Of a DNA stretch of 11,358 nucleotides, positions 7,041-11,358 are shown in pieces (positions within the stretch are counted from its first letter, which is position 1; each line of letters begins with the position of its first letter). Below the pieces are notes generated by a model. It did no database searches and was not told the DNA's origin. It worked only from the letters and a program-made list of their open reading frames with translations. The position numbers were made by a program, and so were the translations under genes. The stretch comes from Escherichia coli (GTDB lineage Bacteria; Pseudomonadota; Gammaproteobacteria; Enterobacterales; Enterobacteriaceae), in assembly GCF_003334355.1 (NCBI RefSeq), contig NZ_QOWP01000054.1, one strand, 5' to 3'.

Positions 7041-7045
7041 GAATT

Positions 7046-7121
7046 TGGCTCCTCTGACTGGACTCGAACCAGTGACATACGGATTAACAGTCCGCCGTTC
7101 TACCGACTGAACTACAGAGGA
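7046..7121 (-). tRNA. asnV: tRNA-Asn (anticodon GUU)
   Basis: Reverse complement is the 76-nt TCCTCTGTAGTTCAGTCGGTAGAACGGCGGACTGTTAATCCGTATGTCACTGGTTCGAGTCCAGTCAGAGGAGCCA, which folds as a cloverleaf with a CU-GUU-AA anticodon loop and encoded CCA. The asnV name is by synteny, next to nac. Confidence 0.97.
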
Positions 7122-7139
7122 ATCGTGTGAACGGGGCGC

Positions 7140-7168
7140 ATATTAATGGCAGTGCATGGTGATGTCAA
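7140..7168 (-). promoter_or_regulatory. Sigma70 promoter of the tRNA-Asn at 7046..7121
   Basis: On the minus strand: TTGACA (7168..7163), 17-bp spacer, TAATAT (7145..7140), then a GC-rich discriminator GCGCCCCG. An A/T-rich UP-like tract lies upstream. Predicted leader is about 12 nt. Confidence 0.75.
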
Positions 7169-7241
7169 AGGGTGAAATGCATTTTTTTGTTTGTTTGCTG
7201 TCAATTTCAACAAAGTGATGAGATTTCAATCTTATTGGTAA

Positions 7242-7258
7242 TGAACCATCGTGGTGCA
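7242..7258. promoter_or_regulatory. Candidate NtrC enhancer site for nac
   Basis: TGAACC-atcgt-GGTGCA against the NtrC consensus TGCACC-N5-GGTGCA (one mismatch), centred about 130 bp upstream of the sigma54 -24 element. Confidence 0.6.
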
Positions 7259-7375
7259 TACCCTCCTTTTATAGGGCAGGGGAACGCGACTGCTGGTGAA
7301 AAGAGCCAATGACGAATCTATCATAATCTCTTATTTGACAGTTGGTTAGCTTGTACATCAACGCCAAAATAAAAC

Positions 7376-7391
7376 TGGCAAGCATCTTGCA
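7376..7391 (+). promoter_or_regulatory. Sigma54 (RpoN) -24/-12 promoter of nac
   Basis: TGGCAAGCATCTTGCA fits TGGCAC-N5-TTGCA with correctly spaced GG and GC, about 55 bp upstream of the nac ATG. Confidence 0.75.
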
Positions 7392-7446
7392 GTCTGGTTG
7401 TAAGTAATGGCGGCACTTGGGCCGATTCTCAAAAACCGGAGGCAAC

Positions 7447-8364
7447 ATGAACTTCAGACGCCTGAAATACTTCGTAAAAATTGTAGATATTGGTAGCCTG
7501 ACTCAGGCTGCTGAAGTATTGCATATCGCACAACCAGCGCTCAGCCAGCAGGTTGCCACACTGGAAGGTGAGTTAAATCAACAACTTTTGATTCGCACAA
7601 AACGGGGCGTTACGCCAACAGACGCCGGAAAAATTCTCTATACCCATGCGCGGGCCATTTTACGTCAGTGTGAGCAGGCCCAACTGGCGGTGCATAACGT
7701 TGGTCAGTCATTATCGGGGCAAGTCTCGATTGGCTTTGCGCCAGGAACCGCTGCGTCATCCATCACCATGCCCTTATTACAGGCGGTTCGCGCTGAATTC
7801 CCGGAGGTCGTTATCTATCTTCATGAAAATAGTGGTGCAGTGCTTAACGAAAAACTGATAAATCACCAACTCGATATGGCGGTGATTTATGAGCATTCCC
7901 CTGTGGCTGGTGTATCCAGTCAGGCTTTACTGAAAGAAGATCTTTTCCTGGTAGGGACTCAAGATTGTCCGGGGCAAAGCGTTGATGTTAATGCTATTGC
8001 GCAAATGAACCTCTTTCTTCCCAGTGATTACAGTGCTGTTAGACTTCGTGTTGATGAGGCTTTTTCCCTACGGCGACTCACGGCAAAAGTCATTGGTGAA
8101 ATTGAGTCTATTGCCACGCTTACCGCAGCGATTGCCAGCGGCATGGGCGTTGCAGTATTACCCGAATCGGCCGCGCGTTCGTTATGTGGCGCAGTAAACG
8201 GGTGGATGTCACGCATTACCACACCTTCCATGAGTCTCTCTTTGTCATTAAATTTACCCGCCAGAGCGAACTTATCACCACAGGCACAGGCAGTGAAAGA
8301 GTTGTTAATGTCAGTGATGAGTTCTCCAGTGATGGAAAAAAGGCAGTGGCAATTGGTGAGCTAA
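7447..8364 (+). CDS. nac: Nitrogen assimilation control protein Nac (LysR-type transcriptional regulator)
   Basis: 305 aa from ATG 7447 (MNFRRLKYFVKIVDIGSLTQAAEVLHIAQPALSQQV...) with an N-terminal LysR helix-turn-helix. CCGGAGG Shine-Dalgarno 4-5 nt upstream. The track's start at 7417 adds 10 residues with no ribosome-binding site. Confidence 0.92.
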   Translation: MNFRRLKYFVKIVDIGSLTQAAEVLHIAQPALSQQVATLEGELNQQLLIRTKRGVTPTDAGKILYTHARAILRQCEQAQLAVHNVGQSLSGQVSIGFAPGTAASSITMPLLQAVRAEFPEVVIYLHENSGAVLNEKLINHQLDMAVIYEHSPVAGVSSQALLKEDLFLVGTQDCPGQSVDVNAIAQMNLFLPSDYSAVRLRVDEAFSLRRLTAKVIGEIESIATLTAAIASGMGVAVLPESAARSLCGAVNGWMSRITTPSMSLSLSLNLPARANLSPQAQAVKELLMSVMSSPVMEKRQWQLVS

Positions 8365-8465
8365 ACGTTATATCGGGATGGAATAAGATGCGGGTTTTTA
8401 TTATTTGTTATGCCGGGCATTAGACTTTAACAATAACGGAAAATCTGAACTGCCCGGAGTTTACC

Positions 8466-9446: not shown

Positions 9447-9453
9447 AGGAATT

Positions 9454-9529
9454 TGGCTCCTCTGACTGGACTCGAACCAGTGACATACGGATTAACAGTC
9501 CGCCGTTCTACCGACTGAACTACAGAGGA
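9454..9529 (-). tRNA. asnU: tRNA-Asn (anticodon GUU)
   Basis: Identical 76-nt sequence to the other two copies, on the minus strand. The asnU name is by synteny, between cbl and yeeO. Confidence 0.97.
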
Positions 9530-9545
9530 ATCGTTGTTGAGGCAC

Positions 9546-9573
9546 ATCTTAACGGCGAAAAATCTTTTGTCAA
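9546..9573 (-). promoter_or_regulatory. Probable sigma70 promoter of the tRNA-Asn at 9454..9529
   Basis: On the minus strand: TTGACA (9573..9568), 16-bp spacer, TAAGAT (9551..9546), discriminator GTGCCTC. Same geometry as the other two tRNA promoters, with a weaker -10. Confidence 0.55.
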
Positions 9574-9689
9574 ACCCGATTTTTAAATTCCCCAACTGTT
9601 TGCCGTTTCTATCAACAGTTTGTTGCATTTGCAGACAATTTGTTGGCGAAAATCTTTGCAGCTTTGCTGATTCTCCCTCATTATTTGAA

Positions 9690-11177
9690 ATGTGGTTTCA
9701 CTTTCTGCAATTAAGGTCGGCTTTGAATATCTCCTCTGCTTTACGCCAGGTTGTTCACGGCACTCGCTGGCACGCTAAACGCAAGAGCTACAAAGTGTTG
9801 TTCTGGCGCGAGATAACCCCGCTTGCTGTTCCTATCTTCATGGAGAATGCCTGTGTCCTGTTGATGGGGGTTCTGAGCACTTTTCTGGTCAGCTGGCTGG
9901 GAAAAGATGCGATGGCCGGCGTGGGATTGGCGGACAGCTTCAATATGGTCATTATGGCTTTTTTTGCTGCTATCGATCTTGGTACTACTGTCGTTGTGGC
10001 ATTTAGTCTCGGTAAGCGGGATCGACGACGAGCGAGGGTGGCGACGCGGCAGTCATTGGTGATCATGACGTTGTTTGCCGTACTGTTGGCAACGCTTATT
10101 CATCATTTTGGCGAACAAATTATTGATTTCGTCGCGGGTGATGCCACGACAGAAGTTAAAGCACTGGCGTTGACTTATCTGGAGCTGACGGTACTCAGTT
10201 ATCCAGCAGCTGCCATCACTCTTATTGGTAGCGGGGCACTTCGTGGTGCAGGGAATACGAAAATACCGCTATTGATTAACGGTAGCCTGAATATTCTTAA
10301 TATTATTATTAGCGGCATATTGATTTACGGCCTTTTCTCCTGGCCGGGACTGGGATTTGTCGGGGCAGGGCTGGGTTTAACCATTTCTCGTTATATTGGC
10401 GCAGTTGCAATTTTGTGGGTGCTGGCGATTGGTTTTAATCCTGCGCTAAGGATTTCGTTAAAGAGCTATTTTAAACCGCTGAATTTTAGCATTATCTGGG
10501 AAGTCATGGGGATTGGTATTCCCGCGAGTGTCGAATCAGTGTTATTTACCAGTGGTCGGTTATTAACCCAAATGTTCGTTGCCGGGATGGGGACCAGTGT
10601 TATTGCCGGAAATTTTATCGCGTTTTCAATTGCGGCTCTTATCAACTTACCCGGAAGTGCGCTCGGCTCTGCTTCTACGATCATTACAGGCCGAAGGTTG
10701 GGGGTAGGGCAGATAGCGCAAGCAGAGATTCAGTTGCGGCATGTGTTCTGGCTTTCCACTCTTGGATTAACGGCCATCGCCTGGCTAACGGCTCCCTTTG
10801 CCGGGGTTATGGCATCGTTTTACACCCAGGATCCACAGGTTAAACATGTCGTTGTGATTCTGATTTGGCTAAATGCTTTATTTATGCCTATTTGGTCCGC
10901 CTCATGGGTGCTACCCGCTGGATTTAAGGGGGCTCGTGACGCCCGTTACGCTATGTGGGTTTCTATGTTGAGCATGTGGGGTTGCCGGGTTGTCGTCGGT
11001 TATGTGCTGGGCATCATGCTTGGCTGGGGTGTGGTTGGTGTCTGGATGGGAATGTTTGCCGACTGGGCTGTGCGGGCCGTGCTGTTTTACTGGCGAATGG
11101 TTACTGGACGTTGGCTATGGAAATACCCTCGATCCGAGCCGCAAAAGTGTGAGAAAAAGCCAGTTGTGTCGGAATAA
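9690..11177 (+). CDS. yeeO: MATE-family efflux transporter YeeO (reported FMN/FAD/dipeptide exporter)
   Basis: Polytopic membrane protein with MATE-like features. The longest ORF (9534, 547 aa) would start inside the promoter and flank of the antisense tRNA-Asn. ATG 9690 gives 495 aa; a TTG at 9723 has the better Shine-Dalgarno (AAGG, 6-nt spacer). The start is uncertain; stop TAA at 11175..11177. Confidence 0.85.
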   Translation: MWFHFLQLRSALNISSALRQVVHGTRWHAKRKSYKVLFWREITPLAVPIFMENACVLLMGVLSTFLVSWLGKDAMAGVGLADSFNMVIMAFFAAIDLGTTVVVAFSLGKRDRRRARVATRQSLVIMTLFAVLLATLIHHFGEQIIDFVAGDATTEVKALALTYLELTVLSYPAAAITLIGSGALRGAGNTKIPLLINGSLNILNIIISGILIYGLFSWPGLGFVGAGLGLTISRYIGAVAILWVLAIGFNPALRISLKSYFKPLNFSIIWEVMGIGIPASVESVLFTSGRLLTQMFVAGMGTSVIAGNFIAFSIAALINLPGSALGSASTIITGRRLGVGQIAQAEIQLRHVFWLSTLGLTAIAWLTAPFAGVMASFYTQDPQVKHVVVILIWLNALFMPIWSASWVLPAGFKGARDARYAMWVSMLSMWGCRVVVGYVLGIMLGWGVVGVWMGMFADWAVRAVLFYWRMVTGRWLWKYPRSEPQKCEKKPVVSE

Positions 11178-11230
11178 ACGACAAAATGCAGATTATTTCA
11201 GCAAACGATTTCAAATTTAAAAAACAGGCT

Positions 11231-11259
11231 TTGACATTGTGGGTGGGCATCGCTAATAT
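11231..11259 (+). promoter_or_regulatory. Sigma70 promoter of the tRNA-Asn at 11278..11353
   Basis: Consensus TTGACA (11231..11236), 17-bp spacer, TAATAT (11254..11259), discriminator TCGCCTCG, and an upstream A-tract (AAATTTAAAAAACAGG) resembling an UP element. Confidence 0.8.
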
Positions 11260-11277
11260 TCGCCTCGTTCTCACGAT

Positions 11278-11353
11278 TCCTCTGTAGTTCAGTCGGTAGA
11301 ACGGCGGACTGTTAATCCGTATGTCACTGGTTCGAGTCCAGTCAGAGGAGCCA
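11278..11353 (+). tRNA. asnW: tRNA-Asn (anticodon GUU)
   Basis: The same 76-nt tRNA-Asn sequence on the plus strand, ending in CCA at 11351..11353, 5 nt before the window end. The asnW name is by synteny, next to yeeO. Confidence 0.97.
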
Positions 11354-11358
11354 AATTC

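Follow-up and report, generated by a model that had tools for sequence, protein, structure and literature searches.

The sequence considered here, hereafter the window, is a stretch of 11,358 nucleotides (nt) from Escherichia coli (contig NZ_QOWP01000054.1 of assembly GCF_003334355.1). It carries three identical copies of a tRNA-Asn gene, of which the first two bracket nac and cbl, and the second and third bracket yeeO. Very probably, these copies are asnV, asnU and asnW, one-gene units whose identical 85-86 nt are substrates for homologous recombination and whose 3' ends are attachment sites for genomic islands. According to this model, a crossover between asnV and asnU, which form a direct pair, would remove one tRNA copy together with nac and cbl; one between asnU and asnW, which form an inverted pair, would flip yeeO; and one between asnV and asnW would flip the whole 4.3-kb segment. 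Independently, the 3' ends of the tRNA-Asn genes would act as the attachment site for the P4-like tyrosine integrases of islands such as pks, the high-pathogenicity island (HPI) and others. The three predicted products are all found among 5,426 complete E. coli genomes, in which the nac-cbl deletion and the 1.9-kb yeeO inversion each reach a population frequency of ~0.6%.

The window contains exactly three tRNA-Asn(GTT) genes according to ARAGORN, at 7046-7121 (minus strand), 9454-9529 (minus strand) and 11278-11353 (plus strand), each of which scores 72.6 bits against Rfam RF00005 (gathering score 29). All three copies thus belong to the bacterial tRNA-Asn genes with anticodon GUU. Together with short flanks, they form the following repeats (ARAGORN, Rfam and repeat search).

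7041..7126, minus strand: repeat copy 1, asnV tRNA-Asn(GTT) at 7046-7121 with a 5-nt leader and a 5-nt trailer.
9449..9534, minus strand: repeat copy 2, asnU tRNA-Asn(GTT) at 9454-9529 with a 5-nt leader and a 5-nt trailer.
11273..11358, plus strand: repeat copy 3, asnW tRNA-Asn(GTT) at 11278-11353 with a 5-nt leader and the trailer AATTC.

A repeat search of the window returned 7041-7126 and 9449-9534 as an 86-nt direct repeat with 100% identity, and 11273-11358 as its inverted partner, 100% complementary; string comparison confirmed that the three 86-mers are exactly identical. The first-pass annotation of this DNA, made from the letters alone, had described three identical tRNA-Asn copies in repeats of about 86 bp, and its coordinates, strands and gene content hold. 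Chance cannot account for an 86-mer that occurs in three exact copies within 11 kb. Identity between the copies extends only 4-5 bases beyond the tRNA on each side in the alignment, apart from a longer inverted pair (7041-7145 and 11254-11358; 105 nt, 97%) that results from the likeness of the -10 and discriminator regions in the promoters of copies 1 and 3. Together with a fourth copy, asnT, which lies outside the window past yeeJ, ~14 kb further on, these genes encode the only Asn isoacceptor of the cell in fourfold redundancy. The identity of the 76-nt tRNA would be maintained by selection on the tRNA itself, and gene conversion between copies probably helps to preserve it. The repeat common to asnW is normally 85 nt long, as the closest genomes carry a T and not a C at position 11358. 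The fifth base 3' of the asnU tRNA (window 9449-9453) is also variable between lineages, being AATTC here and AATTT in SE15, JCM 5491 and ETEC4070, so that the exact length of the repeat (85 or 86 nt) depends on the lineage.

For the survey of rearrangements, one synthetic junction query of 786 nt (350 nt of flank, the repeat and 350 nt of flank) was built for each predicted crossover product and searched against the 5,426 complete genomes. A junction was called when at least 80% of the query matched in one place, which requires the novel junction. The counts were as follows.

Native yeeO/asnW/yeeN junction (empty asnW): 4,981 genomes.
nac-cbl deletion junction (ldtA/tRNA/yeeO 5' side): 35 genomes.
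Tandem duplication junction (cbl/tRNA/nac side): 0 genomes.
yeeO-only inversion, left junction: 32 genomes.
yeeO-only inversion, reciprocal right junction: 34 genomes.
Whole-segment inversion junction (nac side/tRNA/yeeN side): 265 genomes, including Nissle 1917.
ldtA/tRNA/reverse-yeeO junction: 1 genome (SE15).

The arrangement of nac-cbl and yeeO therefore does differ among strains, and the uniformity that would have spoken against the first-pass annotation was not observed. Its proposal that the direct repeats could delete or duplicate nac-cbl stands for the deletion, with 34 of the 35 junctions among the 5,426 genomes running from tRNA to tRNA, and fails for the duplication, whose predicted cbl/tRNA/nac junction occurs in none of them. 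The remaining deletion match, the laboratory strain SL112, represents a different, non-tRNA deletion that keeps both tRNAs. In the annotated loci of MEI3O-23, 2016C-3878 and Esc20, the order is ldtA-tRNA-yeeO-tRNA and both nac and cbl are gone. Four or more flank haplotypes carry the deletion (identities of 99.7, 99.5, 97.3 and 96.9% with the query). The class at 97.3% is a single clone, whose 30 genomes were obtained from humans, cattle, dogs, pigs, sheep, mink and wastewater across several countries. The genomes of this nac-cbl-less clone still show four tRNA-Asn-like places each.

The inversion of yeeO between the inverted copies, likewise proposed in that annotation, was found through both of its reciprocal junctions and verified in the annotated locus of PSJ-36, which reads cbl-tRNA-yeeO(reversed)-tRNA-yeeN. 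The flip is distributed over ~10 identity classes. Between PSJ-36, which is flipped, and CFSAN061772, which is native, there are only 9 single-nucleotide polymorphisms (SNPs) over 12.8 kb in addition to a clean inversion of 1,908 nt, indicating that at least the PSJ-36 inversion is recent.

The whole-segment inversion was counted by its nac/tRNA/yeeN junction, since in pks-positive strains the island interrupts the other one (ldtA/tRNA/reverse-yeeO). The full structure, with the adjoining pks island, is present in JCM 5491. The only match to the ldtA/tRNA/reverse-yeeO query, SE15 (locus 7356-12808), has the nac-cbl-asnU-yeeO block inverted beside ldtA, as well as a second, frameshifted partial copy of yeeO that precedes another tRNA-Asn and then yeeN, and no tRNA is annotated after its nac. 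This duplication-inversion is not explained by a single crossover between tRNA copies.

The signals that surround each tRNA bear on how these products would function. Scans for consensus matches, together with the alignment of the copies, identified the following elements.

7140..7168, minus strand: asnV promoter, TTGACA, 17-nt spacer, TAATAT and a G+C-rich discriminator (promoter scan, 10/12 matches; copy alignment).
9546..9573, minus strand: asnU promoter, TTGACA, 16-nt spacer and TAAGAT (promoter scan; copy alignment).
11231..11259, plus strand: asnW promoter, TTGACA, 17-nt spacer and TAATAT (promoter scan; copy alignment).
7012..7039, minus strand: asnV intrinsic terminator, with a 12-bp stem and a subsequent T run (terminator scan; directly 3' of the tRNA in the alignment).
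9424..9440, minus strand: asnU intrinsic terminator, likewise a hairpin with a T run (terminator scan; alignment).

In the alignment, a G+C-rich discriminator follows each of the three sigma-70-like promoters. By consensus, asnV and asnU have a promoter and a terminator of their own and asnW has its own promoter, the position of its terminator falling outside the window. Judged from these motifs, each tRNA-Asn copy is a putative independent one-gene transcription unit with a strong sigma-70-type promoter. Each of the three promoters is situated inward of its tRNA, that of asnV in the nac-cbl segment and those of asnU and asnW in the yeeO segment. Because of this placement, every product keeps an intact promoter-tRNA-terminator unit as well as an intact yeeO together with the upstream region of that gene, which suggests that the rearrangements are viable and probably near-neutral, the flip products included. 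In the deletion product, the remaining tRNA is preceded by the asnU promoter and followed by the trailer and terminator of asnV. After the yeeO flip, the left tRNA lies between the promoter of asnW and the trailer of asnU, and the right tRNA between the promoter of asnU and the trailer of asnW. Such hybrid flanks are what a crossover inside the tRNA predicts.

General homologous recombination between identical sequences of 85-86 nt is the simplest mechanism for these exchanges, and it would depend on RecA. This length only slightly exceeds the minimal efficient processing segment of RecA-dependent exchange in E. coli, and repeats so near the lower end of efficient recombination fit the frequency of ~0.6% per event. 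A different origin is conceivable in site-specific recombination, in which the P4-like integrases of pks, HPI or other islands would use the tRNA 3' ends as their attachment sites and, by recombining two of them, invert or delete the intervening DNA. Several observations point in that direction: the whole-segment inversion (265 genomes) occurs with the pks island integrated beside it, as in JCM 5491; two papers of 2021 tie this inversion to pks acquisition (PMC8209727, PMC8461471); the locus of 2016C-3878, the sole member of the nac-cbl-less clone whose locus was read, contains a tyrosine-integrase pseudogene and an island directly after asnW; and the deletion strain MEI3O-23 carries HPI genes toward asnT. 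These are countered by the yeeO-inverted strain PSJ-36, in which yeeN directly follows asnW and yeeJ directly follows asnT, with no integrase at either site and none annotated beside asnV or asnU. The lack of an integrase at the asn genes of PSJ-36 favours general homologous recombination for the yeeO flip. In addition, the asnW site of the deletion strain Esc20 is empty, and many of the island integrases encountered are pseudogenes. Integrase-driven rearrangement is for these reasons regarded as unlikely.

Identical repeats are also a classic source of misassembly, and the deleted and inverted arrangements might in principle be artefacts of the repeated tRNA sequence. However, repeats of 86 nt are shorter than a single Illumina read and far shorter than the long reads behind complete genomes. 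The reciprocal inversion junctions were found separately in near-equal counts (32 and 34), with many accessions common to both lists, and the deletion is shared by 30 independently sequenced isolates of one clone. The whole-segment inversion has moreover been published by two groups (PMC8209727, PMC8461471). An assembly origin is thus highly improbable.

Some considerations nevertheless weigh against recombination between one-gene tRNA units as set out above. The promoters and terminators are consensus matches from scans. Identical repeats leave the crossover points unmappable and hence leave room for an integrase that acts in trans in place of RecA; the close association of the whole-segment inversion with pks insertion suggests that an integrase may have contributed to at least that event. 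The numbers of haplotypes and identity classes are a lower-bound proxy for independent events, as they were obtained without a phylogeny. Lastly, tandem duplications are absent although they are expected as often as deletions; presumably, they are unstable or counter-selected.

Other types of element were also considered and rejected. No recombinase gene is found between or beside the repeats, which disfavours a site-specific invertible switch of the fimS or hin type for the yeeO inversion. Such phase variation is further contradicted by the promoters of yeeO, asnU and asnW, which are all contained in the flipped segment and turn with it, leaving no unit without its promoter. A composite transposon or mobile element was discarded as well, since tRNA genes make up the repeats and no transposase is encoded in 7041-11358, where nac, cbl and yeeO are the enclosed genes.

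As regards the second proposed role of the repeats, tRNA-Asn genes as island hotspots, also put forward in the first-pass annotation, are borne out by other genomes and by the published record. An integrase gene lies ~160 bp past the 3' end of asnW in 2016C-3878, JCM 5491, ETEC4070 and the metagenome contig OBWF01000903.1. A probe for the yeeO 3' end/asnW/integrase arrangement matched 367 genomes. Of these matches, ~268 have identities of 80-90% and represent the inverted configuration with its pks-type integrase, and ~100 genomes have an island of the ETEC4070/2016C-3878 type at asnW in the native orientation. Both ICEKp and the Yersinia HPI are able to occupy any asn copy. In E. coli, HPI resides at asnT, and pks at asnW or occasionally at asnU or asnV, according to PMC8209727; PMC8461471 likewise presents Asn-tRNA genes as island hotspots. 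In the window, asnV and asnU are followed at their 3' ends by their terminators and then by the core genes ldtA and cbl, with no adjoining tyrosine integrase, which identifies both as empty attachment sites. This examination covers asnV and asnU, the window stopping 5 nt past the asnW tRNA.

Two metagenome contigs show further variants of the asnW neighbourhood. In OBWF01000903.1 (1-610), the end of an IS1203-type element directly adjoins the final 400 nt of yeeO, which is thus truncated by insertion of an insertion sequence (IS); asnW is then followed by a P4-like integrase of 437 amino acids with ~85% DNA identity to the ETEC4070 type, representing a third integrase type at asnW. In PVMO01010263.1 (851-4353), an asnV-type terminator comes after the promoter and tRNA of asnW, and ldtA is replaced by genes for a 6-phospho-3-hexuloisomerase, an SDR dehydrogenase, a ribulose-phosphate 3-epimerase and a galactitol-type phosphotransferase system IIC component. 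With this sugar-phosphate cluster, some lineage of Escherichia has a neighbour other than ldtA.

A hint at the sequence beyond asnW in the source genome comes from the last base of the window. It is possible, at somewhat less than an even chance, that the site is occupied or recombined, with an island and its integrase or the trailer of another asn copy starting right after 11358 as an attL-type junction. Base 11358 is a C, whereas the yeeN-adjacent (empty) asnW sites that were read, six loci including SE15 and JCM 5491, carry a T (AATTT-TAGTTTTGAGAC...). A 63-nt probe in which the C is joined to the yeeN-side sequence had no perfect match among 5,348 genomes with the junction, the best being 62/63. 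All the sequences found with the asnW promoter, the tRNA and AATTC are either island junctions (2016C-3878, ETEC4070 and OBWF01000903.1) or recombinants with another asn trailer, the latter at three loci that include SE15 and PVMO01010263.1. An exact 107-nt probe for the same arrangement had no match in the GTDB species representatives and matched only in two unrelated metagenome contigs. Moreover, with only 4 SNPs in 11,357 nt relative to strain PSS-12, a chance SNP at exactly 11358 is unlikely.

On the other hand, the evidence for an occupied asnW is a single base. PSS-12 and at least nine genomes identical over the last 999 nt match up to 11357 only, lacking the C, and no complete E. coli genome, including those identical over that preceding stretch, matches the window through its last base. 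Where the downstream sequence was read in close relatives, no island follows: PSS-12 has IS1 and then yeeN after asnW, with no integrase, and CFSAN061772 has yeeN directly. A window-like yeeO haplotype next to an ETEC4070-type island occurs in no complete genome, the best reaching 98.6%. The trailers of asnT and asnV, and that of asnU in the lineage of the window, are all AATTC, and a one-base gene-conversion tract from any of them would yield the same C. Finally, with its start inside an IS and its end 5 nt past a repeat, the window might be a whole draft contig with an unreliable end base. An island, recombination with a further asn copy, conversion of one base, a SNP or a contig end that is not reliable could hence each account for the C at 11358.

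The region as a whole is a core locus of E. coli, cobUST-ldtA-asnV-nac-cbl-asnU-yeeO-asnW. A partial match to the window is present in all 5,426 complete genomes, and 2,595 of them match at least 80% of its length. The alignment with PSS-12 is collinear over 1-11357, with 4 mismatches in 11,357 nt. In the two closest genomes, PSS-12 and CFSAN061772, the RefSeq order is cobU-cobS-cobT-ldtA-tRNA-Asn(-)-nac-cbl-tRNA-Asn(-)-yeeO-tRNA-Asn(+)-yeeN-amn-shiA-...-yeeJ, in agreement with the earlier placement of nac-cbl between copies 1 and 2 and of yeeO between copies 2 and 3. The neighbours and orientations in the window, ldtA-asnV(-)-nac-cbl-asnU(-)-yeeO-asnW(+), are those of the E. coli asnV, asnU and asnW loci. 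The K-12 locus has the same genes, order, orientation and flanks, and the layout recurs in genomes 99.1-99.97% identical to the window, which differs from K-12 by an IS-remnant patchwork in its left 3.6 kb and by the final base, C instead of T.

Part of this picture has already been published. Two reports describe an inversion of the asnV-asnU-asnW segment (4.3 kb) that occurs together with the pks (colibactin) island in phylogroup B2 (PMC8209727, Auvray et al. 2021; PMC8461471, Wami et al. 2021). As described there, it uses the same outer inverted tRNA-Asn pair, copies 1 and 3 of the window. In contrast to the pks-linked segment, the window is in the native, non-inverted orientation. It also differs from genomes with asn-linked islands of the P4-like-integrase type, in which the integrase lies ~160 bp after asnW, in that its asnV and asnU are empty. 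The underlying logic, in which direct repeats give deletions and inverted repeats give inversions, is that of rrn operons, IS elements and repetitive extragenic palindromes or bacterial interspersed mosaic elements (REP/BIME), although the tRNA repeats are only 85-86 nt long when set beside other dispersed repeats of E. coli. The literature already covers the tRNA genes, the identity between them, their use by islands as attachment sites and the large inversion. Where identical repeats are dispersed in a genome, small changes such as the yeeO-only inversion and the nac-cbl deletion are to be expected. No mention of these two rearrangements was found in the searched passages of PMC8209727 and PMC8461471, and no description of the yeeO-only inversion or of the tRNA-mediated nac-cbl deletion was found in the literature searched, the coverage of which is incomplete. 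The chances appear evenly balanced that both are undescribed recurrent polymorphisms, with one clone being a natural nac cbl double mutant and the source genome having an uncharacterised island or recombinant after asnW.

Being ordinary and largely documented biology, these results are of little importance for discovery, and their added value is mainly quantitative: repeats of 86 nt lead to a viable loss of two global regulators, nac and cbl, and to a repeatedly arising flip of yeeO. The deletion costs the cell both regulators and one of its four tRNA-Asn copies, and natural nac-cbl-less strains could be used in physiology studies. Pangenome and synteny pipelines should expect these variants. 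Assemblers and annotators that rely on flanks to name asnU, asnV and asnW will encounter swapped flanks, a source of confusion from which the names given to pks insertion sites already suffer.

The remaining genes and elements of the core region are the following.

6055..6990, plus strand: ldtA (erfK), left flanking core gene (open reading frame (ORF) of 311 amino acids; ldtA annotation in near-identical genomes).
7376..7391, plus strand: sigma-54-type promoter element TGGCA-N6-TTGCA (TGGCAAGCATCTTGCA), an exact single match with 0 expected by chance.
7447..8364, plus strand: nac, nitrogen assimilation control regulator of the LysR type (PSS-12 RefSeq annotation mapped with offset 12714; ORF list).
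8466..9416, plus strand: cbl, LysR-type regulator of sulfonate-sulfur use (ORF of 316 amino acids; annotation in near-identical genomes).
9690..11177, plus strand: yeeO, MATE-family efflux transporter (RefSeq annotation mapped from PSS-12).

The sigma-54-type -24/-12 element, which would correspond to the known NtrC-dependent nac promoter, lies ~55 nt 5' of the nac start, within the segment absent from the deletion strains. For two genes, the mechanically called ORF is longer than the RefSeq gene. The nac ORF (7417-8364) has 315 amino acids and the RefSeq gene, from 7447, has 305. The yeeO ORF (9534-11177) encodes 547 amino acids from a TTG start that abuts the tRNA repeat, compared with 495 from 9690 in RefSeq; its upstream extension crosses the asnU promoter and is probably not translated.

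The left part of the window, 1-3616, holds no intact gene and consists of a strain-specific patchwork of IS remnants, recognised by mapping the PSS-12 annotation onto it.

Window start: last 78 nt of an IS1203/IS629-type element.
~80-1059: truncated IS2.
Within 1-3616: a further IS3-family fragment.
~1445-1945, minus strand: TonB-dependent receptor pseudogene.
~3125-3313: IS4 fragment.
~3322-3465: remnant of a cobalamin-biosynthesis gene, just 5' of cobU.

A start 78 nt inside an IS1203-type element and an end 5 nt past a multi-copy tRNA form the pattern of short-read contig breaks, and the window may be a whole draft-assembly contig with less reliable end bases. Other lineages have pduF, pocR and a cobalamin riboswitch in place of the left patchwork.

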